From positions 1-41,357 of the forward strand of contig JBMLOK010000068.1 in assembly GCA_049243005.1 (NCBI GenBank): a stretch of DNA of 41,357 nt, written 5' to 3'. Of this stretch, positions 635-41,357 are shown piece by piece. How positions within the stretch are numbered: the stretch's first letter is position 1; each line of letters starts with the position of its first letter. The translations under genes were made by a program, and so were the position numbers. The stretch comes from Bacteroidia bacterium (lineage in GTDB: Bacteria; Bacteroidota; Bacteroidia; UKL13-3). The notes under the pieces are model-generated. The model was given only the letters and a program-made list of their open reading frames with translations, had not been told where the DNA came from and made no database searches.

Positions 635-1678
635 TTGAACAAGCCTTTTGTAGATATCGTCATACTTAATCATAATGGTAAGAAATTCCTGGATGAATGT
701 TTTACTTCTGTATTAAACGGTAATTATAAAAATCAGAAAGTTTATTTATTGGATAATGCTTCTACTGATGATGATGTATTTTATGTTAAACAAAATTTCC
801 CTGAAGTAGAAATCATTCAAAACCCTAATAACAACGGGTACTGCGCTGCTTACAATTTAGCATTTGAAGCATGCAACAGTCCGTATATAGTTTGTTTAAA
901 CAATGATGTTACAGTTCATCCCGATTGGTTGGTACATCTAGTTGAATTAGCAGAAAGCAATTCGAATATATCAGCACTACAACCTAAAATTTTATCTTAT
1001 TACAACCATAGTGATTTTGAATACGCCGGCGCATCAGGAGGAATGATGGATGTTTTAGGATATCCATTTTTAAGGGGAAGAATATTCGATCATATAGAAA
1101 AAGACAATGGTCAATATGATGATATAAAAGAAGTATTCTGGACATCAGGAGCAGCTATGTTTATCAGAAAATCAGCTTTAGAAAAATGTGGTGTTTTTGA
1201 TGAATTGATTGTACATCATATGGATGAAATTGATTTATGCTGGAGAATGAGGTTATCAGGCTTTGAGATGAAGGTTCAACCTAAATCAGAAATCTATCAT
1301 ATTGGAGGAGCTAGTATTCCGAAAAATAGCTTCAAAAAAGTGTATTGGAATCATAGAAATTCACTCTATTTATTGTTAAAAAACTACTCCATTTCCAACT
1401 TACTTTTATTCTCATTAGGCCATTTTTTATTGGATATAGTTGCGGCCTGGACTTTCCTTTTACAAGGCAATTTTACCGCATTTAAAGCAATTGCATACGC
1501 ACATATCTGGATAGTAAAAAACATTCCTGTTATTTTAAAGAAAAGAAAAGAAGTACAGCATAGAAGAAGTGTTGCTGATTCAAATATTAAAAAAGCCATG
1601 TACAAAGGCTCCATAGTTTGGGAATCATTTGTTTGTAAACGAAATACCTATCAAACCATAAAAAATTATACATCATGA
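635..1678 (+). CDS. Glycosyltransferase family 2 (WbbL/rhamnosyltransferase-like)
   Basis: VILNHNG, LLDNASTD, NNGYCAAYN, LNNDV, SGAAMFIR and DEIDLCWR GT-A motifs. TTG start; overlaps rfbC by ATGA. Confidence 0.92.
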   Translation: MNKPFVDIVILNHNGKKFLDECFTSVLNGNYKNQKVYLLDNASTDDDVFYVKQNFPEVEIIQNPNNNGYCAAYNLAFEACNSPYIVCLNNDVTVHPDWLVHLVELAESNSNISALQPKILSYYNHSDFEYAGASGGMMDVLGYPFLRGRIFDHIEKDNGQYDDIKEVFWTSGAAMFIRKSALEKCGVFDELIVHHMDEIDLCWRMRLSGFEMKVQPKSEIYHIGGASIPKNSFKKVYWNHRNSLYLLLKNYSISNLLLFSLGHFLLDIVAAWTFLLQGNFTAFKAIAYAHIWIVKNIPVILKKRKEVQHRRSVADSNIKKAMYKGSIVWESFVCKRNTYQTIKNYTS

Positions 1679-2238
1679 AAATATATTTGATACACGAGGC
1701 TTTGAACGGATTAAAGGTTTTTCAACCTGAAGTATTTGAAGATGAAAGAGGATTTTTTGCTGAAGTATACAGAAAAGACCAGTTTGTTGAATATGGCATT
1801 GAAGAAGAATTTGTTCAAGACAATCATTCAAGAAGTGCAAAAGGTGTTTTAAGAGGATTACATTTTCAATGGGAACCACCAATGGGTAAACTCATGAGAG
1901 TAACATCTGGTGAAGCTTATTTAATGGCTGTTGATATCAGAAAAAACTCTCCTACTTATGGCGAATGGTATGGTGAAACAGTAAGTGCACAAAATAAAAA
2001 AATGGTTTATGCTCCAGGAGGTTTTGCCAGAGGCTTTTGTGTATTAAGTGATTTTGCTGAAATACAATATAAGTGCACAGGTTTATACAATAAAAATGCT
2101 GAATCAGGAATATTATGGAATGATCCGGCATTGGGTATTAAATGGCCAATTGATAATCCAACTTTATCTGATAAAGACAAAAATGCACAAACCCTAGCTG
2201 AATGGTCATTGAAACCGGATTCTAATTTGATTAAATAG
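1675..2238 (+). CDS. rfbC: dTDP-4-dehydrorhamnose 3,5-epimerase
   Basis: DERGFF, QDNHSRS, GVLRGLHFQ (catalytic His), VDIRKNSP, GFARGF, QYKCT, WNDP and LSDKD motifs. Confidence 0.95.
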   Translation: MKIYLIHEALNGLKVFQPEVFEDERGFFAEVYRKDQFVEYGIEEEFVQDNHSRSAKGVLRGLHFQWEPPMGKLMRVTSGEAYLMAVDIRKNSPTYGEWYGETVSAQNKKMVYAPGGFARGFCVLSDFAEIQYKCTGLYNKNAESGILWNDPALGIKWPIDNPTLSDKDKNAQTLAEWSLKPDSNLIK

Positions 2239-2239
2239 T

Positions 2240-3214
2240 ATGGAAAAGAAAAGAGTTTTAATCCTTGGAGCATGTGGTTATGTGGGGTCTTTTTTAAGTC
2301 CATATTTACAAGAAAACAATTGGGAAGTTGAAGCAGTTGATTTATGTTGGTTTGGAAATTATCTTGATGAAAACATTCCTTTAACACAAAAAGATATTTT
2401 TGATTTAAAAGCTGATGATTTAAGAGGTTTTGATAATATTATTTTCCTAGCTGGATTATCTAATGATCCTATGGCTGAATTTTCTCCTAAAGATAATTTC
2501 ATATACAATACAGCTATGCCGGCGTACATCGGATATCTGGCTAAAGAAGCCGGAGTAAAAAGAATGATGTTTGCCAGTTCTTGTTCAGTTTATGGCTTTA
2601 CACACAATCAAACATTTACAGAAGATAATATAACCATTTGTGATTACCCTTATGGCATATCTAAACTACAAGGAGAAAAAAGTTTATTGGCTTTAGCTGA
2701 TGAAAACTTTTCTGTTTTATGCTTCAGACAAGGAACTGTTAGTGGATATAGTCCAAGAATGAGATTAGATTTAGCCATTAATACTATGTTTTGGCATGCT
2801 GTTCAGGACAAAGAAATTCAGTTAAGTAACAATAAAATATGGAGACCAATTTTAGGTACCGAAGATTTATGTCGCGCCTACTTATTGGCTTTAAACAAGG
2901 AAGACTGGACAGATATTGGAACAGTAAATATCAGCAGTTTTAATAGTACCATTGGGGATTTGGCTGATGAAGTTGCATTGTTTGTTGAAGAGAAATTCGG
3001 ACATAAAGTAACAATTCATAACAAAGGAATTCAAGATTATAGAAATTATAAAGTGAGTACAGAAAAAGCCATAAATTTATTGGGCTTTGAAGGAAAAGAA
3101 ACTTGTAGAGGAATACTTGAAGACTTATATAAAAACATAGAAAAGTTTACTCCATTTGAACAGGAGAGATTTTTTAATATTCAGGTATTTAAACAAATCA
3201 TGCAAACAATTTAA
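2240..3214 (+). CDS. NAD-dependent nucleotide-sugar epimerase/dehydratase-family protein (extended SDR)
   Basis: GACGYVG Rossmann motif, LAGLSNDP, ASSCSVYG, YGISK catalytic YxxxK. Lacks the STDEVYG signature of RmlB. Confidence 0.88.
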   Translation: MEKKRVLILGACGYVGSFLSPYLQENNWEVEAVDLCWFGNYLDENIPLTQKDIFDLKADDLRGFDNIIFLAGLSNDPMAEFSPKDNFIYNTAMPAYIGYLAKEAGVKRMMFASSCSVYGFTHNQTFTEDNITICDYPYGISKLQGEKSLLALADENFSVLCFRQGTVSGYSPRMRLDLAINTMFWHAVQDKEIQLSNNKIWRPILGTEDLCRAYLLALNKEDWTDIGTVNISSFNSTIGDLADEVALFVEEKFGHKVTIHNKGIQDYRNYKVSTEKAINLLGFEGKETCRGILEDLYKNIEKFTPFEQERFFNIQVFKQIMQTI

Positions 3215-3226
3215 TTAAGAAGTATA

Positions 3227-4138
3227 ATGAAAATAATGTTAACCGGATCTAATGGCCAATTGGGTCGTGACATCCATGAAGTACTAGAAAATAACGGATA
3301 TGAAGTAATTGCTTTAACACATGAAGATTGTGATTTGGTAGACCTATTTACCATGAAAGAATTAATCATGAAACATATGCCGCAAATATTTATTAATACT
3401 GCTGCATTTCACAATGTAGAAGCTTGTGAACAAGATTCAAAAAAGGCTTTTAAAATTAATTCTGAAGCACCTGCCTTTATTGCCAGAATGTGTAATTATC
3501 TTTCTATAAAACTTATTCATTTTAGTTCTGATTACGTTTTTAATGGAAAAAACAATAGTCCATATTCTGAAAATGATACTCCTGAACCATTAAACATCTA
3601 CGGACTATCAAAATTAAAAGGAGAGAATTTAATCAAAGCATCTTGTTGTAAACATTTGATAATTCGTGTGAGTGGACTATATGGTAAATATCCTTGCAGG
3701 GCAAAAAATGGTTTAAACTTTGTGCAATTGATGTTAAAACTTGCAAAAGAAAAAGGTGAAGTTAAAGTAGTAACTGATGAAATTGTTTCACCAACATCAA
3801 CAGCTAGTATTGCTAAAATTCTGATTGAATTTTTGAATAAAGATTTACAAGGAACAGTTCATGTAAGTTCGGAAGGTTCATGCTCATGGAATGAATTTGC
3901 AAAAGAAATTTTCGATTATACAGATACTCCTGTAAGCTTATTAGCTGCTGTTTCAACAGATTTCCCAAGCAAGGTTTCAAGACCAGCTTATTCAGTTTTA
4001 GACAATAAATACATTTATTCAAAAGGCTATCCAAGAATGCCACATTGGAAAGAATCATTGCATTTGTATTTAGATGAATTGAATATAACATCAAAAGAAA
4101 ACAAAGAACTTGAAGCTGAGGCTGGCTTAAGCGTTTAA
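3227..4138 (+). CDS. rfbD: dTDP-4-dehydrorhamnose reductase
   Basis: TGSNGQLG, INTAAFHNVEACE, HFSSDYVFNG, PLNIYGLSK, SPT and RPAYSVLD motifs. Confidence 0.93.
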   Translation: MKIMLTGSNGQLGRDIHEVLENNGYEVIALTHEDCDLVDLFTMKELIMKHMPQIFINTAAFHNVEACEQDSKKAFKINSEAPAFIARMCNYLSIKLIHFSSDYVFNGKNNSPYSENDTPEPLNIYGLSKLKGENLIKASCCKHLIIRVSGLYGKYPCRAKNGLNFVQLMLKLAKEKGEVKVVTDEIVSPTSTASIAKILIEFLNKDLQGTVHVSSEGSCSWNEFAKEIFDYTDTPVSLLAAVSTDFPSKVSRPAYSVLDNKYIYSKGYPRMPHWKESLHLYLDELNITSKENKELEAEAGLSV

Positions 4139-4560: not shown

Positions 4561-7500
4561 ATGAATGTAGCCGTTCAAAAAAACATGCCCATTGGGATTG
4601 GAATAGGTGCGTCGGCCGGTGGGCTTGAAGCATTAGAGATAGTTTTTGAGAACTTACCTGAAAGCCTTCAAAAGAAGGTGTATTTTGTTGTTGCGCAACA
4701 CCTAAGTCCAAAACACTCCAGTTTACTAGTTCCTATCCTTTCTAAAGTATCAAAATTTCCTGTTGTACAGGCAGAAAATAACAAAATTGTAGAGGCAGGT
4801 AAAATCTATATTACTCCGCCAGATTCAGACATTCAGATAAAAAAAGGAACAATTAAATTAAGTAAGCCAAAGAATAAATTAGGTCCAAAACCTTCAGTAG
4901 ATAAATTATTTGAAAGCATTGCCCAGGAATACAAAGAAAAAGCAATTGGAATTATACTTTCAGGAACCGGAAGTGATGGAAGTTTAGGTGTAATTAAAAT
5001 AAAAGAAAATGGAGGAAATAGTATTGTTCAATATCCGGAAAGTGCCAAATATGATGGCATGCCACATTCAGCAATACAAACGGGTTGTGTAAATTATGAA
5101 AGTTACGCAGAACATATTGGGGCTAAAATAGTTGAGCTACTTAATTTCAAAAAAAGAAAAGTACAAACACATTCCAGACAAGAAGAAACAAGAAGGATAT
5201 TCAAAGAAATTCAACTTGAATTCGGTACTGATTTTAATCAGTATAAAATGACTACCATTCTGAGGAGAATAGAAAAAAGAATGTTGTTTTTATCTATACC
5301 AAACTATTCAGATTATACGCAATTAATCATTAACAATAAAGAAGAAAAAAATATTCTCTATCAGAGTTTCCTGATTGGTGTTTCCGGATTTTTTAGAGAC
5401 GCTGAGTTATTTAAAAACCTGGAATTAGAAATTGAAAAGAAAATTAAAGCAGATGAAATAAAAGAAAACTTTAGAATATGGATACCGGGATGTAGCAATG
5501 GTGAAGAAGCTTACAGTATTTGTATGATGGTAGATTATTTATTTACTACTAAATATAAAATCAGAAGTAATATTCAAATTTTTGCCACTGACATCTCAAA
5601 CAAATCGCTTTTAGTTGCAAGAAAAGGTATTTATGAAATTGGTCTTAGAAACAAAATATCTAAAGAACTAATTCAATCTTATACAATTGACCAAAACAGT
5701 GAATTTCTAATAGATAAGTCTATTAGAAGCAAAGTTTTATTTTCACAACATGATTTAACCAACAATCCACCTTTTTTAAATATTGATTTAATTAGCTGCA
5801 GGAACTTACTTATCTATTTAAACCAAGATGTTCAAAAAAGAATTTTCTCCATATTTCATTATTCGTTGAATGAAAAAGGAATCTTATTTCTAGGTAAATC
5901 AGAAAGTATTTCAGGTTCGGAAGAATTATTTGAAGTATTAAATTCTAAATCAAAAATTTTTCAGAAAAAACATGTTCATTCAAAACGATTAATAAAACTT
6001 GGTCATTTCAAGCCATTAAAAAATTCGCTAAATAAAGATGAACAGATTTTATCGAAAAAGGATTATTTAATGAACCAAAAGGAGCTAATTAGAGAAAAGA
6101 TAATTCATCTGATAGAGCCTATTTACTTGATAGTTTCTGAAAATTTAGAGATTCTCGAAACACATGGAAAAATCAGTGAAATACTTGAAATCGCGGAAGG
6201 TAATATTCACATGAATCTTTCGAGTTTATTAAGAAAATCACTTTTAACTGAAGTAAAAAAATTAATCTTACAATGCAATAAATTAGGAGAAAACAAAAGC
6301 TCAATTGTCAATAATGTTTTTGTAGATGGAATTCAAATTAGTTATAAAATAAGTGTTGGTCATTTAAGTGAATACAATAACCCTGGTTACAATAAGGCTG
6401 TATTATTGGTTTTTGAAAAAATTGAATCTATTAAACAAAAACCTTTCAAACCGGAAGATTTTAATTCACAAAGATTAATAGAAGTTGAACAGGAATTAGA
6501 GATTACAAAAATTCATTTACAATCTTATATTGATGAAATAGAAACAACGAATCAGGAACTTCAATCATTAAATGAAGAACTTCAATCATCTAATGAGGAA
6601 CTACAATCATCTAATGAAGAATTAGAAACAAGTAATGAAGAATTACAGGCTTCTAATGAAGAGTTACAAACAGCTTATTCTGAAATTAAACATATCAATC
6701 AGGAATTAGAGATAAAGGAAAAAGAGTTAATTGAAAGCAATAATTTATTCTATTCAATGTTCGAGAACTCTCCTCAAGGAAATATTTTATTAGACCCAAA
6801 TCTTAGTTTAATTCTATTTAATGAACCCGCAAAAAAAATAATCTCTCAGATTGGTTTAGGAAAACTTGAAAAGAGTAAAAACATCCTTGATATCATTGGA
6901 AATCATGCAGATTTTGACAGAATCTTAGCTGCAATAAGAAAGGTTCAATTAGAAAAGAAATCATTTTTTGAAAACTTAAGGACCAAAACCAATTTAGAAA
7001 TCTTTCACACAGAATTACATATAACACCCATACTACTCAATGGAAACATTCAATACATTTCATTAAATCTGATTGACTTAAGCAATCTGGTAAAAAAAGA
7101 AGAAGAAATATTTGAACGAGATGAAATGTTAAATTCATTATTAGAATCAAATACAACCTTCTTAATCAGGTTAGATTTATTGGGAAACTATACCTATGTA
7201 AACAATGCATTTTGTCAAAAATTTGGAGTTAGTCCAAGTGAAATAATTGGAAAGAACTACCTGACCACAATTCATCCTGATGATTTATCGGAATGTGAAA
7301 AAACAGGGTATCAAATATTAACTCAACCCAATCTAATTCACAAATCCCAAATTCGTAAACCCAAAGCAAATGGTGTTTATATTGATACTGATTGGGAATA
7401 TGTAGCCATACAAAATAATGAAGGAATAATCAAAGAAATACAAGGTGTTGGAAGAGACATTACAGACCAGAAAAAAATGTTATTAGATCTTGAAGAAGAA

Positions 7501-10125
7501 CGAAACCACCTGGAGATGTTAATATGGGGAGGCAGATTGGGCACATGGGACTGGAATCTTGTATCTAATGAAATTGTATTTAATGAAAGATGGGCTGAAA
7601 TGTTGGGATATGAAGGAGCACAAATAAAATTAGCTTATTCTGATTGGGAGAAAACCATATTAAAAAGTGATTTACCAAAAGTAAAAGAGGCATTAGAATT
7701 AACAATCAAAGGAGAACGTTCTTTTTATGAATTAGAGTACCGTTGCATAGGCTTAAATGGTAAAATAATCTGGATGTATTCAACAGGAAAAGTTATTGAG
7801 AAGAATAAAAAGAAAAAACCACTTCGTATCTTAGGAATTCATCAAGACATTACAGAAAAAAAAGATACTGAATCAAAAATAAGAACAATTGAAGACAGAA
7901 ATAATGCCATTGTTTCAACATTAAATGAAGGTATAGTAATTCAAAATTTAGATGGTGAAATAATCTCTTGTAATTCCAGTGCAGAGAAATTATTAGGTAT
8001 ATCATTTGATCAAATGATTGGAAAATCATCTATTGATCCAATATGGAAAACGATAAAAGAAGATGGAAGTGAATTTCCGGGAGAAGAGCACCCTGCAATG
8101 AAGACTCTTAAGACAGGCGTGGCACAATCTGATGTTGTGATGGGTATCATTAAACCAAACGGCGAATTAACTTGGATTAATGTTTATGCTCATTTATTAT
8201 ATCATACCGATAGCAAAATTCCATATGCTGTATTTACTATTTTCCATGATTTTACAGATAGAAAAAAAGCAGAAGAAGAATTAGAAAAGAATAAAAATCT
8301 ATTAAATGATACAGGAAGAGTTGCACAAATTGGAGGTTGGGAATTTGACTTAAAATCGAAACAAATTACGTGGACTGAAGAAACTTTTAGGATTCATGAG
8401 TATTATGAAAATAGTGCCCCAGATTTAGAAACCATAAGAGCATTCTTTGATGAAACCAATCTGCCAATTTTAGACAATGCCTTTAAAATGGCAATTGAAA
8501 AGGATATTCCTTTTGATTTAGAATTAAAACTAAAAACTCTATTAGGAAATGAAAAATGGGTAAGAATTATTGGAAAAGGAAAATATGATGCTGAGGGAAT
8601 AACTAAAATAATTGGAAGTGTTCAAAACATAACTAAAATTAAAAAACAAGAACTAGAATTACATTCAGAAAAAACAAGGTTAAATGGAATCATTGAAGGA
8701 ACGAATGTAGGAACATGGGAATGGGATGTTAGAACCAATATAACTATTTTTAACGACAGATGGGCTAGCATGTTGGGTTATACATTAGAAGAATTGGCTC
8801 CTATTAGTTTTCAAACCTGGGTTGATTTAGCACATCCTATAGATTTGAAAAATGCGAATGCTCAAATACAAAAACATCTTCAAAAAGAGATTGACTACTA
8901 TGAAGTTGAAATGAGAATGCGCCACAAAAATGGCGATTGGAAATGGATTTTAACCAGAGGTAAAATAGTTAAAACAGATGAAAACAATGAACCTATTCAA
9001 CTTTCCGGAATTCATATTGATATAACTCAAAGTAAGCTGCTGGAAGAAGAACTCAAAAAACTTTCAATTGTTGCAGAGCGAACCTCAAATGCTGTTGTGG
9101 TTTCTGATAATTTGGGTAGGATTACCTGGGTAAATGAATCGTTTACAAAAATTACCGGATATAAATTAGATGAAGTTAAAGGCAAAAAACCAAAATCAAT
9201 TTTTCATTACCAGGGTACCAATCCTGAGACAATAAAATACCTTCATAATAAATTAAAAAAATTGGAAGATGCAAAATGTGAAATTAAAAACAGAGGCAAA
9301 TTTGGTCAAGAATATTGGATTGATTTAGAAATCAAAGCATTGTTTGACCAGAGTGGTGTTCATACAGGATTTATGGCAGTTCAGGCAGATATTACAGAAA
9401 GTAGAAAAGCTGAACAAGTCTTAAAACATAAAAATGAACAACTTGAAAATATCAATAAAGAATTAGAACAATTTGTATATATAGCTTCTCATGATTTACA
9501 AGAACCATTATTAACAATTAGAAATTGTGCTGAGATTATTAAATCTGAAATGGCTGTAAATCTTGATGAAGAAATGAATATGTACCTCGATTTCATTTTT
9601 CAGTCGAGTGAAAGATTAAGAGAGTTAATTAAAGGCTTGATGCAATATTCAAGAATCGGAAGAGAACGAAGAATTGAAGAAATTAATTTAAATAACCTGC
9701 TATTAGATATAAAGAAGGACTTACAATTTTCGATTGAAGAAAGTTCATCAATAATTAAGTACGATGAATTACCAACAGTTAATGCTTATCCAACTGAATT
9801 GAGGTTATTGTTTCAAAACCTAATTAGTAATTCAATCAAATTCAGGACCCTGAATTCTCAAACTATTATTGAAATTACCTGCACTGAATCTGATGAAAAC
9901 TGGTCATTTATGGTTGAGGACAATGGCATTGGGGTTGATCCCAAAAACTTAGAAAAAGTATTTATTATTTTTAAAAGACTTCACAACCGTGATGAGTATG
10001 AAGGAACTGGAATCGGATTGGCACATTGTAAAAAAATCATTGAATTACATGGTGGCAAAATCTGGATGGAATCTGAAAAAGGTAAAGGTTGTAAAGTAAT
10101 TTTCACTATCCCTAAAAACCAATAA
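4561..10125 (+). CDS. CheB-CheR fusion multi-PAS sensor histidine kinase
   Basis: CheB triad motifs GASAGG, QHLSP, GSDG. CheR motifs RIWIPGCSNGEEAYS, FATDIS, SCRNLLIYL. EELQSSN coiled coil. About 7 PAS/PAC units (GTWDW/GGWEF/GTWEW starts, DITxxK ends). H-box ASHDLQEPL, N-box NLISNSIKF, DNGIG, GTGIGLA. No transmembrane segment seen. Confidence 0.93.
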   Translation: MNVAVQKNMPIGIGIGASAGGLEALEIVFENLPESLQKKVYFVVAQHLSPKHSSLLVPILSKVSKFPVVQAENNKIVEAGKIYITPPDSDIQIKKGTIKLSKPKNKLGPKPSVDKLFESIAQEYKEKAIGIILSGTGSDGSLGVIKIKENGGNSIVQYPESAKYDGMPHSAIQTGCVNYESYAEHIGAKIVELLNFKKRKVQTHSRQEETRRIFKEIQLEFGTDFNQYKMTTILRRIEKRMLFLSIPNYSDYTQLIINNKEEKNILYQSFLIGVSGFFRDAELFKNLELEIEKKIKADEIKENFRIWIPGCSNGEEAYSICMMVDYLFTTKYKIRSNIQIFATDISNKSLLVARKGIYEIGLRNKISKELIQSYTIDQNSEFLIDKSIRSKVLFSQHDLTNNPPFLNIDLISCRNLLIYLNQDVQKRIFSIFHYSLNEKGILFLGKSESISGSEELFEVLNSKSKIFQKKHVHSKRLIKLGHFKPLKNSLNKDEQILSKKDYLMNQKELIREKIIHLIEPIYLIVSENLEILETHGKISEILEIAEGNIHMNLSSLLRKSLLTEVKKLILQCNKLGENKSSIVNNVFVDGIQISYKISVGHLSEYNNPGYNKAVLLVFEKIESIKQKPFKPEDFNSQRLIEVEQELEITKIHLQSYIDEIETTNQELQSLNEELQSSNEELQSSNEELETSNEELQASNEELQTAYSEIKHINQELEIKEKELIESNNLFYSMFENSPQGNILLDPNLSLILFNEPAKKIISQIGLGKLEKSKNILDIIGNHADFDRILAAIRKVQLEKKSFFENLRTKTNLEIFHTELHITPILLNGNIQYISLNLIDLSNLVKKEEEIFERDEMLNSLLESNTTFLIRLDLLGNYTYVNNAFCQKFGVSPSEIIGKNYLTTIHPDDLSECEKTGYQILTQPNLIHKSQIRKPKANGVYIDTDWEYVAIQNNEGIIKEIQGVGRDITDQKKMLLDLEEERNHLEMLIWGGRLGTWDWNLVSNEIVFNERWAEMLGYEGAQIKLAYSDWEKTILKSDLPKVKEALELTIKGERSFYELEYRCIGLNGKIIWMYSTGKVIEKNKKKKPLRILGIHQDITEKKDTESKIRTIEDRNNAIVSTLNEGIVIQNLDGEIISCNSSAEKLLGISFDQMIGKSSIDPIWKTIKEDGSEFPGEEHPAMKTLKTGVAQSDVVMGIIKPNGELTWINVYAHLLYHTDSKIPYAVFTIFHDFTDRKKAEEELEKNKNLLNDTGRVAQIGGWEFDLKSKQITWTEETFRIHEYYENSAPDLETIRAFFDETNLPILDNAFKMAIEKDIPFDLELKLKTLLGNEKWVRIIGKGKYDAEGITKIIGSVQNITKIKKQELELHSEKTRLNGIIEGTNVGTWEWDVRTNITIFNDRWASMLGYTLEELAPISFQTWVDLAHPIDLKNANAQIQKHLQKEIDYYEVEMRMRHKNGDWKWILTRGKIVKTDENNEPIQLSGIHIDITQSKLLEEELKKLSIVAERTSNAVVVSDNLGRITWVNESFTKITGYKLDEVKGKKPKSIFHYQGTNPETIKYLHNKLKKLEDAKCEIKNRGKFGQEYWIDLEIKALFDQSGVHTGFMAVQADITESRKAEQVLKHKNEQLENINKELEQFVYIASHDLQEPLLTIRNCAEIIKSEMAVNLDEEMNMYLDFIFQSSERLRELIKGLMQYSRIGRERRIEEINLNNLLLDIKKDLQFSIEESSSIIKYDELPTVNAYPTELRLLFQNLISNSIKFRTLNSQTIIEITCTESDENWSFMVEDNGIGVDPKNLEKVFIIFKRLHNRDEYEGTGIGLAHCKKIIELHGGKIWMESEKGKGCKVIFTIPKNQ
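6550..6675 (+). repeat. Six imperfect 21-bp in-frame tandem repeats encoding N[EQ]EL[QE][STA][SLA] heptads
   Basis: Units aatcaggaacttcaatcatta, aatgaagaacttcaatcatct, aatgaggaactacaatcatct, aatgaagaattagaaacaagt, aatgaagaattacaggcttct, aatgaagagttacaaacagct. Confidence 0.85.
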
Positions 10126-10127
10126 AC

Positions 10128-10529
10128 ATGAGAAACTTAAACTGTATTTTACTGGTAGATGACGACAATGCTACCAATATGTTGAATTCATTCGTAATTA
10201 AAAAAATGGAACTGACAAAAACCATAAAAGTAGTCTTAAATGGAAGTGAAGCACTGGACTATTTACAATCTATTTCAGAAGAGGAGCAATGTCCTGAATT
10301 TATTTTCTTAGACATCAATATGCCCAAAATGGATGGATGGGAATTTTTGAAGGAATACCGTGAAATGAATGTAGAAAGACAAAGGGCAAAAGTAATTTTA
10401 CTTACTACATCAGAAAATCCGGATGATATTGAAAAAGCTAAAAACTACCCCGAGATTCAGGAATATTGCAATAAACCATTAACTAAAGAAATAATTTTAA
10501 ATCTGGTCAATAAATATTATCCTGAATAA
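10128..10529 (+). CDS. Single-domain response regulator (receiver only)
   Basis: LLVDDD, IFLDINMPKMDG (phosphoacceptor Asp), LLTTS, NKPL. Starts 2 nt after the kinase stop. Confidence 0.93.
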   Translation: MRNLNCILLVDDDNATNMLNSFVIKKMELTKTIKVVLNGSEALDYLQSISEEEQCPEFIFLDINMPKMDGWEFLKEYREMNVERQRAKVILLTTSENPDDIEKAKNYPEIQEYCNKPLTKEIILNLVNKYYPE

Positions 10530-10538
10530 GCTAAAAAA

Positions 10539-10874
10539 CTAAGTCTTAAACTCGAATATTTTCTCCATTAACTGCCACTTCTCTCCTATTTTAGAACCGG
10601 GAATTGCTTGTTGGTATTTCCACATCAAATCTTCCCAAAGCAATACCTTTTCGCTCGCGAAATCAATTTTGTTTTTCTCTTCAAAACTAAATGAATCGCT
10701 TGTTTCAATTCGCATCATTAAGCGATTATGAACACGAAATATTTCACAACTTGTTATGCCGGATTCTTTGATTTTTTCTAATACCTCCGGCCAAACATTT
10801 TGGTGATAATCTTCATATTCCTGAATAGATTTTTCATCATTTATTAAATCTAAAGCAAGGTAAAATGTTTTCAT
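10539..10874 (-). CDS. L-rhamnose/L-fucose mutarotase (RhaM family)
   Basis: EYEDYHQNVWPEV motif (Tyr and catalytic His), IKESGI, WEDLMWKYQ, EKWQLMEKIF. Confidence 0.9.
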   Translation of the reverse strand: MKTFYLALDLINDEKSIQEYEDYHQNVWPEVLEKIKESGITSCEIFRVHNRLMMRIETSDSFSFEEKNKIDFASEKVLLWEDLMWKYQQAIPGSKIGEKWQLMEKIFEFKT

Positions 10875-12097
10875 ATTCTAATTAATTTAGAGGCATAAAA
10901 AGCAATCCAAACAAAAGCAAACATTGGCAATAAGAAAGCAAACTGAATATTAGAGCTATCAGAAATCAAACCCATAAACAAAGGAAAAATTGCCCCACCT
11001 ACAATTGTCATAATGATTAATGAGGAAGCCATTCCTGCTCTTTCATTAAGTCCTTTTACCCCATTGGAAAAGATACTTGGAAACATAATCGACATAAAAA
11101 ACATACTTGCCATTAAAGCATATACTGTGAGATAATTCTGAGAAACCATTACAATAAGCAGTAATACAACATTAATAATTGCATAAACCATTAATAACAA
11201 ATTTGGCTTTATATAATTCATTAAAAATGCGCCAATAAATCTACCCGACATAAATAAAAACAAAGCAACAGATAAATATAAAGCTGCGGTTTTATCTGAA
11301 ATTCCAGTTTGAGAAACAGCTAATCTTATAAAAAAACTACCTATTCCAACCTGTGCACCTACATATAAAAATTGTGCTAACATTGCTTGTCTAAGTGAAT
11401 TAGATTCTTTTAACAATTTAATATATGAACCAGAATCTGATGACTTTTTCTCTAATTCTGGTAAAGGTAAAAACATAAAAATTAAAGCAACAGCCAATAC
11501 AATTGATGCAATAACCAAATATGGAGTCTGAACAGATGCAGCTTCCTGAAGTAATTTATCATGAAGGTCTGAACTGCTTAAACCACTTGTATTTTCTGAT
11601 GTAAATATATTTCCTGAAAGAATAAACCTGCTACCAAATAAGGCTGCTAAAGTAGCTCCCAATCCGTTAAATGATTGTGCAAAATTCAATCGTTTTGTTG
11701 CGGTTTCGGCATCACCTAAAACAGTTACATAAGGATTAGCAGCAGTTTCAAGAAAAGTCAAACCGGTTGCTACTATAAACAATGCAATTAAAAAGAAGGA
11801 ATAGGATAAAATGAGAGATGCCGGATAAAAAAGAAATGCACCTATTGAAAATAACAAAAGTCCAATGACAATAGTTATTCGATAGCCCCATCTATTTATA
11901 AACAAAGAAGCAGGAATAGCCATTAAGAAATAAGCAATATAAAAAGATGAATCAACTAAGGCTGATTGCATATCATTGAGCTGACAAGCTTTTTTCAGAT
12001 GAGGAATTAAAATGGGATTAAGATTATGTGCCAAAGCCCATAAAAAGAACAAACTCAGAATTGAAACAAAGGCAATTTTTGTATTTACTTTCTTCAT
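10871..12097 (-). CDS. fucP: L-fucose:H+ symporter-family MFS permease
   Basis: About 12 hydrophobic segments; LFFLWALAHNLNPILI, TGLTFLETAANPY, RLNFAQSFNGLG, AQFLYVGAQV, FMSIMFPSIF, IVGGAIFP. Overlaps the mutarotase start (ATGA). Confidence 0.88.
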   Translation of the reverse strand: MKKVNTKIAFVSILSLFFLWALAHNLNPILIPHLKKACQLNDMQSALVDSSFYIAYFLMAIPASLFINRWGYRITIVIGLLLFSIGAFLFYPASLILSYSFFLIALFIVATGLTFLETAANPYVTVLGDAETATKRLNFAQSFNGLGATLAALFGSRFILSGNIFTSENTSGLSSSDLHDKLLQEAASVQTPYLVIASIVLAVALIFMFLPLPELEKKSSDSGSYIKLLKESNSLRQAMLAQFLYVGAQVGIGSFFIRLAVSQTGISDKTAALYLSVALFLFMSGRFIGAFLMNYIKPNLLLMVYAIINVVLLLIVMVSQNYLTVYALMASMFFMSIMFPSIFSNGVKGLNERAGMASSLIIMTIVGGAIFPLFMGLISDSSNIQFAFLLPMFAFVWIAFYASKLIRI

Positions 12098-12100
12098 GTT

Positions 12101-13246
12101 TTATTTTCTTCTTATTTGAATTTGGATAGCATTATCGATTGGTTTATCTGAACATAATATCAAGTATCCTCCTCCACCGGCGCCGCTTAATTTATAACCA
12201 TATACAGAATCCTTATAAACATCTATTATATTAAAGATATCTTCATTTACCATATTGGGAAACATGGCAATTTGAGCTTCAAACGACAATCGCATAGATT
12301 CACCAAATAATTTTAAATCCTTATTTATAGCAGCATTCCAACAAGATTCGGCAGCCTGTGATAAAGCATTTGCATAATACTTATTAATATTGGTATCAGC
12401 TAAAACATGGTAATCGTGTTTACGCTCACCTAAACTAATTAGGTATAAATTTTGCTCAATAAAACTTAATACATCTTCATCAAAAACTGAATCAATTTTA
12501 GATGGCCAGTATTGAGCTTCATAAAAACTTCGATTTAATCCGGCATAAACAATTCCAATTGCATCTTGTGAACCGGCAATCTCTGTTTTACCAGGAGGAT
12601 TTTCATATGAAAATAAAATCTTTGCTGTTTTTTCGGAATTTGAATCGGGTAATTGATTTTGCCATAATTCAGTTGCAACCCTTCTGGTGCTGCTAGCCAT
12701 TCCACTTCTAGAATTAAAATCGTGGCTTGGTTCTATGCTGATTGTAATAACAGGTCCGGAAGCAAACAAAGATACAAAAGGCTGATCTAGCCAACCACCT
12801 GCTAAATCAATTCTAAATGGAATGGTATTTATTTTTCGCAAATCTGTGGTTGAGCGTGCAGGAAGTCCTGTAAAAGGCGTTCTATCCAAAACAATCAATT
12901 CGATATTTTTTGAAGCACATAATTCTGCCTTTTCTTTTGAATAACCATCTTCATTAACCACAAAAATATCGGGTTGAATTCTTTCTAGCTCAGGTAAAAA
13001 ATCTAAATATCCGGAACCCTGACTGATACAAACTTCATGAACATCAATTAGTGCTTCAAGAATAAATTTTCGCTCATTTTCTGAATTCACTGGATATCTT
13101 TTCTTCAATTCGAAGACAGTTTTATCTGAGCCCAAACAAACATATACTTGTCCGAACTGTGCTGCACTTCTAATAAAAGCAATATGCCCGCTGTGCAACA
13201 AATCAAAACATCCACTGATTAGTACCTTTTTAAGTGTCTTCTCCAT
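12101..13246 (-). CDS. Bifunctional HxGH cytidylyl/adenylyltransferase-like domain plus GHMP (fucokinase-like) sugar kinase
   Basis: N-terminal SGCFDLLHSGH...GSD...RSTT. C-terminal PFRIDLAGGWLDQP, RSGMASS, GSQD, YKLSGAGGGGYL. Start moved to ATG at 13246 (MEKTLKKV) rather than the track's TTG at 13285. Confidence 0.85.
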   Translation of the reverse strand: MEKTLKKVLISGCFDLLHSGHIAFIRSAAQFGQVYVCLGSDKTVFELKKRYPVNSENERKFILEALIDVHEVCISQGSGYLDFLPELERIQPDIFVVNEDGYSKEKAELCASKNIELIVLDRTPFTGLPARSTTDLRKINTIPFRIDLAGGWLDQPFVSLFASGPVITISIEPSHDFNSRSGMASSTRRVATELWQNQLPDSNSEKTAKILFSYENPPGKTEIAGSQDAIGIVYAGLNRSFYEAQYWPSKIDSVFDEDVLSFIEQNLYLISLGERKHDYHVLADTNINKYYANALSQAAESCWNAAINKDLKLFGESMRLSFEAQIAMFPNMVNEDIFNIIDVYKDSVYGYKLSGAGGGGYLILCSDKPIDNAIQIQIRRK

Positions 13247-13359
13247 ATCTAATCGGCAAAATAGGAAAAAAGAAAAGTTTAGCAATAATCAAAATAAAGA
13301 CTTATTCTAATTTAACTTCAGCTTGATTTTTAAAAATTCAAGTAAAAGGGAGATCTAAG

Positions 13360-13746
13360 TTAATTCCTAATAATTTGATTCAAATCGGCAATCGAAAGAG
13401 GTTTACTTAAAAAGCCTTTAACAATTGAAAATTGTTTAGCCATTTCCATGTCTCTTTCATCTAATGAAGAACTCAGCATAAAAACCTTAATAGATTCAAT
13501 TAAATTAGCAGGTAGTTCATTTAATTTTTGAAGGAAGGTGATTCCATCCATATCAGGCATTCGAATATCCAATAAAACTAAAACAGGTATTAATTCCGGG
13601 TGTTTTAAATCTCTAGTTAATTGTTGAAGTGCTATTTCCGCAGAATTAAAAACCACAACCTCACATTCCCAACCTGAACGTTCTATCATTTTAGAACTTA
13701 TGAGATTGAAAATTTTATCATCGTCTATTAAATAACACCTGTTCAT
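13360..13746 (-). CDS. Single-domain response regulator (receiver only)
   Basis: YLIDDD, VLLDIRMPDMDG, MLSSS, LSKPL. Confidence 0.92.
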   Translation of the reverse strand: MNRCYLIDDDKIFNLISSKMIERSGWECEVVVFNSAEIALQQLTRDLKHPELIPVLVLLDIRMPDMDGITFLQKLNELPANLIESIKVFMLSSSLDERDMEMAKQFSIVKGFLSKPLSIADLNQIIRN

Positions 13747-13758
13747 AAAAAGTAGAAA

Positions 13759-13843
13759 TAAATTAAAATCCTTTAAAGACTATAAAGAAGTCGAATATAT
13801 TGGATTTTAATTTAAAAATTTATAAATAATGAGTAATTATTTA
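13759..13843 (-). other. Two intergenic inverted repeats between kinase and receiver genes
   Basis: TAAATTAAAATCC (13759-13771) pairs with GGATTTTAATTTA (13802-13814); TAAATAAT (13823-13830) pairs with ATTATTTA (13836-13843). Both are AT-rich. Confidence 0.45.
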
Positions 13844-13846
13844 GTT

Positions 13847-15694
13847 TTAAGACTCCTCTTCCGGTTCAAATATACTTGGTAAATAAATTGTGAAAACAGA
13901 ACCTTTGCCTAAAACTGAACTCACCTCAATTCTACCATTTAATTTTGATACAATTTCCTTGCAGATATAAAGTCCTAAACCGGTACCGGAAGTTACATTA
14001 GAAGCTCTAAAAAACATATTAAATACCTTTTGAAGATTGGCTTCACTGATACCTTCCCCATTGTCTTCAATTCTTAAGATGATTTCATCTTTCTTTTTAT
14101 AAGCTTTAACTCTTATATAAGAATTTGCAATTTCTTTTCTGGAATACTTTACTGAGTTTGCAATGATATTTTTAACTACAGTATTTAAGCGAGGTTTATC
14201 TGAACTGAATTGGAGGTTATTTTCAATATCCAACATCAAATCAACATTATGGTCTGAATAGTATTTTACATCATTAAAAGCATTCGTAACTATCTCTTTT
14301 ATATTAATAAACTCTGGTCTGATACCCAATCTAGCATTTCTTGAATAATCTAAAATTTCTTTTATGGTTTCATCCATTCTGGAAACAGATTCAGCAACTA
14401 ATCCTAAGTACTGTTCGTTTTCTTGGGTGTCAACAGATTTTATATCTATTAAGGCTAACAATCCTTTAATTGCTAATAAAGGCGCTCTTAAATCATGTGA
14501 AACACTGTATACAAAATTATCAAGTTCTGAATTGATTTTCTTTAATTCAGCATTATTTAAAATAAGTTCTTTTTGAGCTAAATGTCTTTTTTCTTCAACA
14601 GCAATGGCAGCTGCAATAATTCCAATGATTTGTTTGTCTTCATCCGTTGGTTGAGTTGCGCTAGCAAAACAGACTCCCAAAATACCGGTTGTCGTGCCTT
14701 CCAGATTAACTTTTCTTCCTATAGTTCTAAACTGATGAACATCTGTACCTTTACTATTCATTTCAGATTTAAATTCCGGAGGAATATGAGAATCTATGGT
14801 AGTTTCGTCTTTAGAATTCCTAATAAATGTTTTTAAATAAACTATATCATTTACAGAAAGAAAAATTGGAGATTGACTAGTTTTCGAACATGAGTATGAA
14901 AATAAATCTAATTTATCTAATCCTTTATAAAAGCAAAAATCTGCATTTAACAATTCACAAGCCACATCAGTAAGTTTTCCTATATTTTCAATTGGACTCG
15001 AACCAAAACCCAGGAAAACTTTTGCTAAACGAGAAAGGCGATTTTCAGAAGATTGAATTCGTTTAGCTTTTTGAAGGCTATTAAACTGAGATAATACCTG
15101 CTGAGCAAATAAACCAAAAGCATTTGCTCTTCTTTCATCGACAGGATTGTAACTTAATGCGCCCGATTTGAGTACGCCACCAACCATGTAAATAGAAACA
15201 TTTAATTCCTGATTTACGGCCCTAGTAAGCATGAGTTGATTGAAGGGAATTAGGTTGCTTAAATCATCCCATTGGCCATCATTTAACTTAAGTACTTTTC
15301 CGCTATCATAATAACTTAAATTTCCATTTAAGAGATTATAAATCCGATATGCTTCTTCATTTTGGAGAGAAAAACCCTCCATTTCATAACTAAGTAAAAA
15401 CTGGTTATTCTGACTTGAAACAATTACCAAACCTATTTCAAATTCAAAAATATCAATTATGGATTCCGCTACTAACAATAAGAAATCAGATTCTTCACTT
15501 TCCTCAAATGCTTCCTTATTAAAAGCATTCATACGCTTATGCATCACCACCTCGCTATCTAAGCGATCACGAACATTTATCAGCGATTGTTCAACAGCAG
15601 AAAATCGTGAGATCCTCAGCTGTAAATCTCTGAATTGATTAATTAATTGTTCCTTGCTTAAATCTTCAAGATCTGTATGAGTTAATATCCCCAT
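13847..15694 (-). CDS. Cytoplasmic sensor histidine kinase (probable GAF-like domains, HisKA, HATPase_c)
   Basis: H-box FVYSVSHDLRAPL, NIIANSVKY, DNGEGI, FFRAS, GTGLGLYI. GAF-like end motif GILGVCF...PTDEDKQIIGIIAAAIA. No transmembrane helix seen. Confidence 0.9.
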   Translation of the reverse strand: MGILTHTDLEDLSKEQLINQFRDLQLRISRFSAVEQSLINVRDRLDSEVVMHKRMNAFNKEAFEESEESDFLLLVAESIIDIFEFEIGLVIVSSQNNQFLLSYEMEGFSLQNEEAYRIYNLLNGNLSYYDSGKVLKLNDGQWDDLSNLIPFNQLMLTRAVNQELNVSIYMVGGVLKSGALSYNPVDERRANAFGLFAQQVLSQFNSLQKAKRIQSSENRLSRLAKVFLGFGSSPIENIGKLTDVACELLNADFCFYKGLDKLDLFSYSCSKTSQSPIFLSVNDIVYLKTFIRNSKDETTIDSHIPPEFKSEMNSKGTDVHQFRTIGRKVNLEGTTTGILGVCFASATQPTDEDKQIIGIIAAAIAVEEKRHLAQKELILNNAELKKINSELDNFVYSVSHDLRAPLLAIKGLLALIDIKSVDTQENEQYLGLVAESVSRMDETIKEILDYSRNARLGIRPEFINIKEIVTNAFNDVKYYSDHNVDLMLDIENNLQFSSDKPRLNTVVKNIIANSVKYSRKEIANSYIRVKAYKKKDEIILRIEDNGEGISEANLQKVFNMFFRASNVTSGTGLGLYICKEIVSKLNGRIEVSSVLGKGSVFTIYLPSIFEPEEES

Positions 15695-15710
15695 AGTAAA
15701 ATTAGTGATA

Positions 15711-16898
15711 TTATTTTCTGTAAATTACATATAAAGCAGTTGTATAATTATGGTAAGTATTCTTACCCGATAATCTGGCAAATTCACCAAAACCATACAT
15801 ACCTAACCAAGGTGGACATTCCCCATTGTTTGAAAAAGGGAATTGCATTCTGTTTACCAGTTCTTCTTTTAAAATTCTATTAAATAAGAATCTTCCACGA
15901 GCAAGGCAATCGGCATGAAAAACAGCAACCGGAACTTTACCTTCCGACCTTTTTACCATATCTGAAACGATTCTGTCCATTTCGGTAAAAATTTTCTCTT
16001 CATCTCTTTGTGTTAACCAAAGTTTGGTTCCTTCTTTAATTGATGTTGCATACAACATTTCCTCATTTTCATGACTGGTAACAACTCTTAAAATATGTTC
16101 ATTACCATATTCTTTAGCTTGTTCCAAATTCAGTTGTTCAGCCAAAGCTCCAATAGGAATTGTATCGCCACAATTATTGTCTGCATTTAAACCTAAACGT
16201 TGAGTAAACTCAGACCAAGCCGGCTTTCCATTTAATTCAATAATCCTATTTCCATTAGATTTAGTTACAATAAATGGCTCCCCATAAGCAACGAATCCGT
16301 GTGTTGCTGCAGTATCAACTACTAAAGATGGATCTGAAAATCCAACTAAAAAAGAAGCATGCTCATATACATTTTTATCTATAGCCTGATAACTTATTAC
16401 CCCTTTCATATTATCTGAAGTTGTTGCTCCAAAAATGGTAACTTCTGGTCCAAACACATCTTCAATAGCAAGAATGCATGCATCATTGTCAATATCAATT
16501 CCAGGTGCCATAAAATAAAGCATATTGATATTTGGATTTTCATCTTTCAATGCTTTAGCCATTACCAATGTTTTTTGGTAAGCATTTGAACCATTGATAT
16601 CAACACAATGTCCGACAGAAAACTCTTTACCTTTTATTGCCATTAAAGCAATATCTTTCATTGATTCACTTACACCCTCTCTACCAACAACTCCACAACA
16701 TGATGCCGCTAAAATTCGGGCATTGGGAGCCAATTTTGAAGCTTCATCAACTAAATCAGAAAAATTATGACCTATTGATGCATGAAGAATAATTAAGTCA
16801 CAATCAGAATATGAATTACCAAGGGCGATTTCCAAACATTCACTAACACCTCTGCGGGTATTAACCATTCTTGTGCTTCCTGAATAAAATTCTAACAT
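15711..16898 (-). CDS. Stand-alone FIST-domain (FIST_N plus FIST_C; NosP-like) sensor protein
   Basis: ASCCGVVG, IFGATTSD, HGFVAYGEPFIVTKSNGNRIIELNGKPAW, DCLARG, GMYGFGEF and YHNYT FIST motifs. Start moved to ATG at 16898 (MLEFYSG). Confidence 0.88.
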   Translation of the reverse strand: MLEFYSGSTRMVNTRRGVSECLEIALGNSYSDCDLIILHASIGHNFSDLVDEASKLAPNARILAASCCGVVGREGVSESMKDIALMAIKGKEFSVGHCVDINGSNAYQKTLVMAKALKDENPNINMLYFMAPGIDIDNDACILAIEDVFGPEVTIFGATTSDNMKGVISYQAIDKNVYEHASFLVGFSDPSLVVDTAATHGFVAYGEPFIVTKSNGNRIIELNGKPAWSEFTQRLGLNADNNCGDTIPIGALAEQLNLEQAKEYGNEHILRVVTSHENEEMLYATSIKEGTKLWLTQRDEEKIFTEMDRIVSDMVKRSEGKVPVAVFHADCLARGRFLFNRILKEELVNRMQFPFSNNGECPPWLGMYGFGEFARLSGKNTYHNYTTALYVIYRK

Positions 16899-17196
16899 AA
16901 TTTTGGGGATTAAATAATCGTTAAAAATACAATACAAAAAAATCAGTTATTGTCATTAATTCAATTAATAGTTTTAATTTTTCGTTTGCTAATTTAAAGA
17001 TAATCAAAATCAATTTTAGTGGTTAATTTTATGATTTAACCGGAAAAAACTTATTAAGAAAACTTTTGTTAAACCTGAAAATTTAAGTTTTTTAAGAATA
17101 AAATCCTTCTTAAAACTCCAAAAAAATGCGAAAAGAGCTAAGGTAGATTCGAGTAAATCTAATTAATGTGTCAAATGCATCTGAAAGTTAATGCAT

Positions 17197-27640: not shown

Positions 27641-27821
27641 TTTCGCAAAAGTTTTAATTCTTATCATGGTTTTGTTCAACGAAAAACTCTTAAAATCAAC
27701 ATTAAAACAATTAAATTAAAACAAAATAAAAAATTGAATTAAATATTGATGATTTAAGTTTTACCCGATTTGCAATATATAAAAATGGATTTATGAAATG
27801 AGTTGAATAGGAATCTTTTAC

Positions 27822-41110: not shown

Positions 41111-41357
<247 letters not shown>

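Follow-up and report, generated by a model that had tools for sequence, protein, structure and literature searches.

What would become of an imported deoxy-sugar in a bacterium whose permease gene is coupled to a nucleotidyltransferase-kinase fusion gene and a mutarotase gene is the question raised by a three-gene locus on contig JBMLOK010000068.1 of a Bacteroidia bacterium (GTDB lineage UKL13-3; GenBank assembly GCA_049243005.1). The stretch of DNA analysed, referred to here as the window, is the contig from position 1 to position 41,357, and the three open reading frames (ORFs) run along its minus strand from 13246 to 10539. The first encodes a nucleotidyltransferase (NTase) fused to a GHMP-type sugar kinase, and the other two a FucP permease and a mutarotase of the RhaM family. 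As judged from the sequences of the locus and its relatives, the operon is probably a self-contained module for the salvage of L-fucose, its fusion enzyme resembling in its presumed action FKP, the single polypeptide with which Bacteroides converts free L-fucose to nucleotide-fucose.

Three coupled genes and their families

The coordinates of the ORFs bear out a first-pass annotation, made from the letters of the window, that had described three coupled genes at 10539..13246 with a gap of 3 nt and an overlap of 4 nt (Table 1). The fusion gene ends in TAA, which is followed by 'aac' and then by the ATG of fucP, giving the gap, whilst the TGA of fucP and the ATG of the third gene share the letters ATGA, giving the overlap. 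The start of the fusion gene is the ATG at 13246; a TTG located 13 codons before it is unsupported by the N-termini of homologues. The arrangement of the three genes is beyond chance, as no other close copies exist in the assembly and the same neighbours recur across separate clades of homologues.

Profile and fold matches agree with the families that had been named for the products, namely an HxGH NTase fused to a GHMP kinase, FucP and a RhaM-type mutarotase. The permease scores 362 bits against the fucP equivalog TIGR00885 (cut-off 280.4), the match covering residues 8-402 of 408. The 111-residue product of the third gene scores 85.5 bits against the rhaM family PF05336 (cut-off 23.4) and 24.2 bits against the RhaM/YiiL equivalog TIGR02625 (cut-off 99.6), and is hence a member of PF05336 but no RhaM orthologue. 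Its closest solved relative is 7byu, an 'L-fucose mutarotase', although the match is weak (E 0.0021). This relative, FucM (7BYU/7BYW), is a RhaM-type L-fucose mutarotase reportedly described by Watanabe et al. 2020 from a non-phosphorylating fucose pathway. FucM and the 111-residue protein share the Pfam family PF05336, but the catabolic dehydrogenase route that FucM serves was not found in the genome of the window.

The assembly of that genome (3.3 Mb, 481 contigs, 87% complete) carries gmd above the profile cut-off with an adjacent fcl-like gene, as well as two GH29 alpha-L-fucosidase genes. A search with PF01531, the profile of GT11 fucosyltransferases, matched nothing, the controls included, and so carries no weight either way. 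The only other match to the fusion is 30% identical over 129 residues (contig C345), the only other FucP match is a 33%-identical gene of the major facilitator superfamily (MFS; contig C340), and no second rhaM-family gene was found in the assembly. Fkp was likewise not found in it, fucI, an FGGY kinase and a class II aldolase gave no tblastn match there, and no L-fuconate dehydratase was found, the enolase-superfamily genes being only MenC-like, dipeptide-epimerase-like and enolase itself. The gene annotation of the window holds no isomerase, aldolase or sugar dehydrogenase gene, as had been noted at first reading. The operon looks anabolic because no Fkp, fucI/K/A or fuconate dehydratase was found, and, subject to the incompleteness of the assembly, the fusion looks to be the sole onward route for imported fucose in this genome.

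Table 1. Features of the predicted L-fucose salvage operon, with their positions in the window
Feature	Position	Strand	Description
Bifunctional NTase-kinase gene	12101..13246, stop codon included	(-)	381 aa; ORF with Pfam and NCBIfam matches
NTase domain, about aa 4-126	12869..13237	(-)	H18-S-G-H21, K48, E58-R59; R131-S-T-T134 just beyond
GHMP sugar-1-kinase domain, aa 131-381	12104..12856	(-)	R145-I-D-L-A-G-G-W152-L-D154-Q155, P-loop G182-M-A-S-S186-T-R188, G225-S-Q227-D228, G355-A-G-G-G-G360-Y
fucP	10871..12097	(-)	408 aa, MFS, L-fucose:H+ symporter
rhaM-family mutarotase gene	10539..10874	(-)	111 aa, predicted L-fucose mutarotase
Intergenic region 5' of the operon	13247..13359	(-)	113 nt, between response-regulator gene and fusion gene; presumed promoter region

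The two catalytic domains of the fusion

The N-terminal domain belongs to the HIGH nucleotidyltransferases by TIGR00125 (45.4 bits, cut-off 27.7) and matches PF01467, CTP_transf_like, over residues 10-137 of the fusion with 41.5 bits (cut-off 21); its best partial NCBIfam matches are to rfaE domain II and to glycerol-3-phosphate cytidylyltransferase. In an alignment of 39 homologues, 49-86% identical to the window protein, H18, G20, H21, K48, E58-R59, R131, S132 and T134 are invariant. H18-S-G-H21 is the HxGH motif of these enzymes, and R131-S-T-T134 the second motif, of the RxxxSTT type. The same 39 homologues served as input for an AlphaFold2 model of the whole fusion, in which the mean predicted local distance difference test score (pLDDT) is 87.1. 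Compared via the model (about residues 4-124), the Rossmann-like NTase domain superposes on 3glv (Z 16.9, root-mean-square deviation 1.7), on the CTP:glycerol-3-phosphate cytidylyltransferase 2b7l (Z 16.7, 30% identity), on the cytidylyltransferase of Fom1, 5x3d (Z 16.6), and on HldC, 5xf2 (Z 15.7).

The C-terminal kinase domain is unusually compact, at ~250 residues, and has the GHMP fold with the motif II phosphate loop and the glycine-rich motif III; G182, M183, S186 and residues 355-360 are invariant in the 39 sequences. Via the model (residues 131-381) it superposes on the heptokinase WcbL, 4usk (Z 22.1, 244 residues aligned, 22% identity), the fucokinase of FKP, 9iip (Z 20.3, 234 residues aligned, 26% identity), the galactokinase 1s4e (Z 19.7) and the HddA-like 3k85 (Z 17.2). 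The best match of the fusion by sequence in the PDB is the FKP fucokinase 9iip (E 9.4e-11), and WcbL reaches an E-value of 0.0095.

The likeness to FKP appears to extend to residues that hold the sugar. Passages of a report on FKP (PMC11982464) list R592, W599, D601, T602, G759, Q761, D762 (the proposed general base), G717 and A900 as contacts of fucose-1-phosphate, with R592, W599 and D601 touching the fucose and A900 the phosphate. HMMER pairs R592, W599, D601 and A900 with R145, W152, D154 and A356 of the window protein, all four of which are invariant in the 39 sequences, whilst the position of T602 is occupied by an invariant Q155. The invariant G225-S-Q227-D228 shares its G-x-Q-D spacing with G759, Q761 and D762 of FKP, a correspondence of Q227 and D228 at the level of the motif only, because the HMMER alignment stopped short of the middle of the kinase domain.

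Against NF009948, the profile for Fkp, the fusion scores 53 bits where the equivalog cut-off is 721 bits, and the match is a partial one to positions 874-944 of 974, the fucokinase end; against NF008454, for HldE, it scores 39.8 bits (cut-off 521) and matches positions 341-434 of 475 only. By membership the fusion is no Fkp, although by analogy it may act like one. The motifs of NTase and kinase being invariant, both domains look catalytically competent; each is intact and confidently modelled.

Fucose-related neighbourhoods, the proposed pathway and its rivals

Neighbouring genes were counted around the best 80 of 211 loci that carry a relative of the fusion; these are mostly contigs of metagenome-assembled genomes (MAGs), many of them short and mutually non-independent. 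No fusion ORF was called in two loci (L029, L045), and for four others of high GC content the greedy caller chose an antisense ORF. Of the 80 loci, 18 have a FucP homologue immediately downstream of the fusion and 24 have a rhaM domain within 1.3 kb of it, in six loci on the same polypeptide, and the linkage to permease and mutarotase genes on which the first-pass annotation had staked its reading is thereby confirmed. Adding four extra loci brings rhaM to 26 of 84, on the same strand as the fusion in 25 of the 26. Gmd and Fcl were each found in 7/80 loci, GH29 alpha-L-fucosidase and class II aldolase each in 5/80, FucI in 4/80 and an FGGY kinase in 2/80. Six Gmd proteins exceed the TIGR01472 cut-off, and Pfam or NCBIfam matches bear out the identities of the other neighbours. 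What appeared to be a weak Fcl neighbour is a homologue of GDP-mannose 3,5-epimerase (E 9.5e-84 to the Arabidopsis GME 2c59), present in 4/80 loci (L024, L034, L042, L054) and adjoining the fusion in a fifth genome (L085). By this tally, at least one such fucose or GDP-sugar gene occurs in about 40 of the 80 loci, nearly always on the strand of the fusion.

In a quick maximum-likelihood tree, from which two of the 84 loci were excluded for want of a clean full-length fusion row, the fucose-related contexts are scattered over separate clades and not confined to one, which suggests a shared function and repeated independent association. In Bacteroidales loci the fusion lies inside fucA-fucI-...-fucP-GH29 operons, whilst three Verrucomicrobiae loci surround it with GT2, EptA-like, Wzy_C-like and SDR genes. 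All five loci closest to the window's fusion (L001-L005) have fucP, and none of them shows the epimerase.

In some relatives the partners are joined in one chain. Six Bacteroidales-type loci have an ORF of 594-613 residues, and in every one of them a hidden Markov model places a rhaM domain immediately ahead of the fusion match; the two that were scanned in Pfam (L043, L050) read rhaM-transferase-kinase, as does a further protein, P0242, and in L044 a gene with tandem rhaM domains stands directly upstream of the fusion. Among the cluster representatives of the family, Gmd is joined to the compact kinase domain in P0324, a GT2 or DXD-type glycosyltransferase is joined to the kinase domain in P0287 and P0316, and others in the same set (P0246, P0245) have tandem transferase domains or PNP_UDP_1 together with transferase and kinase; many representatives are kinase-only proteins of ~240 residues. 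Some of the odd architectures in the set of P0324, P0287, P0316, P0246 and P0245 may be read-throughs of the gene caller.

What has been set out so far is observed: the order of the genes, the folds of the domains, the conservation of catalytic and sugar-binding residues, and the recurring genomic associations. From these we infer every catalytic step, the part played by the anomers and the choice of nucleotide, as follows. FucP would import free L-fucose, and the RhaM-family mutarotase would speed the exchange of its alpha and beta anomers. The C-terminal GHMP-kinase domain would phosphorylate beta-L-fucose at O1 with ATP, yielding beta-L-fucose-1-phosphate, and the N-terminal HIGH-fold domain would convert fucose-1-phosphate and a nucleoside triphosphate to the nucleoside diphosphate (NDP) derivative NDP-L-fucose, most probably GDP-beta-L-fucose. 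The product would join the pool made de novo by gmd-fcl and feed fucosyltransferases for surface glycans.

This sequence of import, mutarotation, sugar-1-phosphate and NDP-sugar had been proposed at first reading for L-fucose, L-rhamnose or a related sugar, and it gains from the linkage to fucP and rhaM, the GH29, fucI, fucA, FGGY, gmd and fcl neighbours, the invariant FKP-type residues and the failure to find fucose catabolism in the genome. Comparative genomics supports narrowing the sugar to L-fucose, and nothing was found to support L-rhamnose. As to the nucleotide, a GDP product is probable from the association with neighbours: GDP is favoured because Gmd, Fcl and the epimerase recur as same-strand neighbours and because Gmd is also found fused to the kinase domain, and the links to these three GDP-sugar enzymes disfavour the non-GDP nucleotide that had been entertained earlier. 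The chances lean slightly towards the fusion being the first guanylyltransferase of the cytidylyltransferase fold, in which case it would serve the salvage of fucose and also, together with GDP-mannose 3,5-epimerase, an L-galactose route of the Leloir type.

Several points weigh against an L-fucose salvage module that yields GDP-fucose. Among characterised enzymes, those nearest to the NTase domain use CTP (GCT, ECT, CCT, Fom1) or ATP (HldC); a member of the cytidylyltransferase fold that uses GTP is not known to us, and one would be new. In the kinase domain, GHMP_kinases_C matches residues 306-366 with 18.7 bits, under its cut-off of 21, and GHMP_kinases_N has no match in the fusion, although some homologues of the fusion exceed the PF08544 cut-off in precomputed annotation; by fold score WcbL also stands slightly ahead of FKP (Z 22.1 vs 20.3). 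The 80 loci are the best of 211, mostly from MAGs, and depend on one another; about half of them, many on short contigs, have no fucose-related neighbour, and 7/80 have MarR instead, five of these with an acyl-CoA dehydrogenase as well. The sugar may be L-galactose where GDP-mannose 3,5-epimerase adjoins the fusion, and, because the assembly is 87% complete, the catabolic genes are to be taken as 'not found' and not as 'absent'.

The composition of the N-terminal domain's relatives could be taken at face value, in which case the pathway would be the same but the NTase would take CTP or ATP and make CDP- or ADP-L-fucose, which biology is not known to use as a donor, for unrecognised fucosyltransferases. 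All characterised structural neighbours of the domain are cytidylyl- or adenylyltransferases, and the best partial NCBIfam matches point the same way. The proposal is nevertheless unlikely, since the fusion adjoins, on the same strand, three GDP-sugar enzymes (Gmd, Fcl and GDP-mannose 3,5-epimerase), a protein that joins Gmd to the kinase domain is known among the representatives (P0324), and the genome of the window already makes GDP-fucose de novo through gmd-fcl and would for that reason have users of it; moreover, we know of no transferase that depends on CDP- or ADP-fucose. Those same epimerase neighbours (L024, L034, L042, L054, L085) raise a different doubt, about the sugar: the true substrate here might be L-galactose, or else D-arabinose or some other sugar of the fucose configuration, with GDP-L-galactose passing to GDP-mannose in a Leloir-like route. 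Divergent epimerases also stand beside a paralogue of the fusion in L083 and L086, with LacI, rhaM, FucP-like and GH43/GH51 genes, FKP is reported to take L-galactose (PMC6678494), and Amuc_1591 of Akkermansia muciniphila, which is taken up below, apparently accepts D-arabinose (PMC13313206). For the window itself this is rather improbable: its genome has no orthologue of GDP-mannose 3,5-epimerase in the assembly (best tblastn match 26% identical) but does have GH29 alpha-L-fucosidases, its permease is above the L-fucose equivalog cut-off, and fucP without the epimerase is the rule in L001-L005.

The fold of both domains could also recall the enzymes of heptose activation, HldE or HddA/HddC, with a heptose-phosphate kinase and a heptose-1-phosphate nucleotidyltransferase making NDP-heptose for lipopolysaccharide. 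WcbL is the top fold match of the kinase domain, 3k85 is among the others (Z 17.2), and the N-terminal domain resembles HldC and RfaE domain II; by sequence, however, FKP is far ahead of WcbL, the residues aligned with fucose-binding residues of FKP are invariant in the fusion family, and it is fucP, rhaM, GH29, fucI/A/K, gmd and fcl that lie beside the fusion. Neighbouring proteins that were scanned matched no GmhA (SIS) or GmhB (HAD) family, neither of which was searched by name. Heptose activation is thus very hard to sustain, and was dropped on genomic context and sequence. Still less can be said for a catabolic kinase domain, for instance an L-fuculose kinase replacing FucK, accompanied by a regulatory or vestigial NTase domain. 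That idea, to which we give the least credence, would fit the place of the fusion within the fucA-fucI-...-fucP-GH29 operons of Bacteroidales loci, but it was rejected because FGGY kinases share those operons (in the upstream gene of L020, and in L044 and L054); in addition, the NTase motifs are invariant, no fucI or fucA was found in the genome of the window, and the fusion is also tied to gmd/fcl and to glycosyltransferases.

Two sets of loci stand apart. In a Chitinophagaceae-type clade (L012, L013, L017, L036, L040, L058) the fusion is followed by MarR in all six and by an acyl-CoA dehydrogenase in five, with no fucose gene in view. In L083 (G120:C8) and L086 (G072:C3) an SDR gene of the GDP-mannose-3,5-epimerase type adjoins a paralogue of the fusion that has diverged to 42-45% identity; a LacI regulator, rhaM and a FucP-like permease slightly under the cut-off accompany it in L086, both loci have further glycan-degrading genes (GH43 in L083), and genome G120 is without a gmd above the cut-off. 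The route of this paralogue may concern L-galactose or a plant-wall sugar.

Distribution, precedents and surroundings

The fusion belongs to a large family. Among 8,000 scored candidates from a database clustered at 90% identity, at least 7,977 are homologues, the best 120 are all at least 58% identical to the fusion, and clustering at 50% leaves 184 representatives at E <= 1e-30. By the titles of the records, relatives are spread across Bacteroidota, Chloroflexota, Verrucomicrobiota, Ignavibacteriota, Calditrichota and Latescibacterota, among others, and cultured carriers include Pontibacter silvestris and Huijunlia imazamoxiresistens. Where they are named, they are called 'cytidyltransferase-like protein' or 'adenylyltransferase/cytidyltransferase family protein'. 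In 300 high-quality genomes of the window's phylum the fusion was matched in nine, one copy being partial and one split by a stop, and Fkp exceeded its cut-off in three, none of which is among the nine; the overlap expected is ~0.1. In the split copy (G260:C11:44395-45526) either a TAG stop or a frameshift divides the fusion into two parts. The contig of L001 is 99% identical to the window's gene and is labelled a cyanobacterial MAG (Vulcanococcus limneticus), which is probably an error of binning or naming, because the relatives that come after it are MAGs of Bacteroidia and the window has a G+C content of ~32%.

FKP of Bacteroides is the closest precedent in logic. It takes free L-fucose to nucleotide-fucose in one polypeptide, as is predicted for the fusion, has the same order of domains, the transferase preceding the GHMP kinase, and has a homologous kinase domain with fucose-contacting residues that appear to be conserved. 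It differs in size, with 949 residues against the 381 of the fusion and a kinase of ~430 against ~250 residues, and in its transferase, which passages of PMC11982464 describe as an alpha/beta and beta-helix pyrophosphorylase, whereas that of the fusion is an unrelated HIGH/HxGH Rossmann-like domain of ~125 residues. The heptose enzymes supply parts of the same design: the N-terminal domain has the fold and HxGH motif of HldC and RfaE domain II, and for the kinase the nearest fold is that of the GHMP heptokinase WcbL, the HddA/WcbL systems sharing the combination of kinase and nucleotidyltransferase, but the genomic context of the fusion is fucose and not heptose. The kinase domain of HldE itself is of the PfkB family. 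Fucose salvage in animals (FCSK, FPGT, FucM) follows the same three-step logic, including a mutarotase that aids salvage, but with separate proteins. In animals the mutarotase belongs to the RbsD/FucU type, and the pyrophosphorylase has a different fold. Fucose mutarotase is stated to facilitate fucose incorporation in passages of PMC2912782.

The nearest published counterpart of the enzyme is Amuc_1591 of Akkermansia muciniphila, a putative 'fucose-nucleotidyltransferase' proposed from genetics by Lakey et al. (Gut Microbes 2026, PMC13313206). As described in passages of that report, it joins an N-terminal adenylyl/cytidylyltransferase domain to a sugar-kinase domain at the C-terminus, which can be superposed on 9IIP; 12 of 12 spontaneous D-arabinose-resistant mutants were mutated in it, its loss suppresses D-arabinose toxicity, and growth was rescued by L-fucose. 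In those passages it shares the two-domain architecture of the window's fusion and bears the product name 'adenylyltransferase/cytidyltransferase family protein', which is NCBI's name for the fusion family; it is placed beside murJ, and not beside fucP and rhaM (PMC13313206). The fusion family is present in Verrucomicrobiae, within glycan-biosynthesis clusters. No murJ was seen beside the three Verrucomicrobiae loci (L022, L045, L046), whose residues 176 and 326 are N and L or I and not the V and G of Amuc_1591, and name look-ups with the Verrucomicrobiae homologues returned no Akkermansia entry. Judged by the description of its architecture and not by sequence, Amuc_1591 likely belongs to the fusion family.

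A full-text literature search on the fusion and fucose returned nothing beyond Lakey et al. 2026. The label 'undescribed', which the first-pass annotation had given to the locus, therefore suits the operon but not the design of the enzyme, which passages of PMC13313206 propose for Amuc_1591. The enzyme design is already in print, and it is supplemented here by the linkage to permease and mutarotase, the triple fusion and the associations with GDP-sugar enzymes.

The gene is annotated in thousands of genomes as nothing more than an 'adenylyltransferase/cytidyltransferase family protein'. If the proposed function is true, many harvesters of fucosylated glycans would route fucose directly into their own surface glycans, Akkermansia included according to the 2026 report, and a 381-residue maker of GDP-fucose, or of an analogue, would offer biocatalysis a compact alternative to the 949-residue FKP. 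If instead CDP- or ADP-L-fucose is made, the module would feed an unrecognised class of fucosyltransferase in thousands of environmental and gut bacteria. The operon is a natural test set, with permease, mutarotase and enzyme together.

A scan for sigma-70-type promoters gave 14 sites (17.2 expected) and hence no enrichment, other promoter types being outside its coverage, and a terminator scan gave two (1.7 expected), again without enrichment. Genes of two-component systems flank the operon on either side. Those directly upstream on the same strand (13360-16937, minus) encode a FIST-domain protein, a histidine kinase and a receiver, and may regulate the operon or be co-transcribed with it, because just 113 nt separate them. 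On the other side (4561-10529, plus) lie a gene for a 1854-residue hybrid sensor, built of CheB methylesterase, CheR methyltransferase, many PAS, HisKA and HATPase domains, and then a stand-alone receiver gene that converges on the operon, the facing stop codons lying 9 nt apart. A glycan-building cluster at a distance of about 6 kb (635-4138, plus) has genes for a GT2 glycosyltransferase, rmlC, an SDR protein and rmlD, of dTDP-rhamnose synthesis. Elsewhere in the window (22613-27679, minus) is a gene for a 1688-residue protein with a gingipain-type Peptidase_C25 domain and an ILEI domain.

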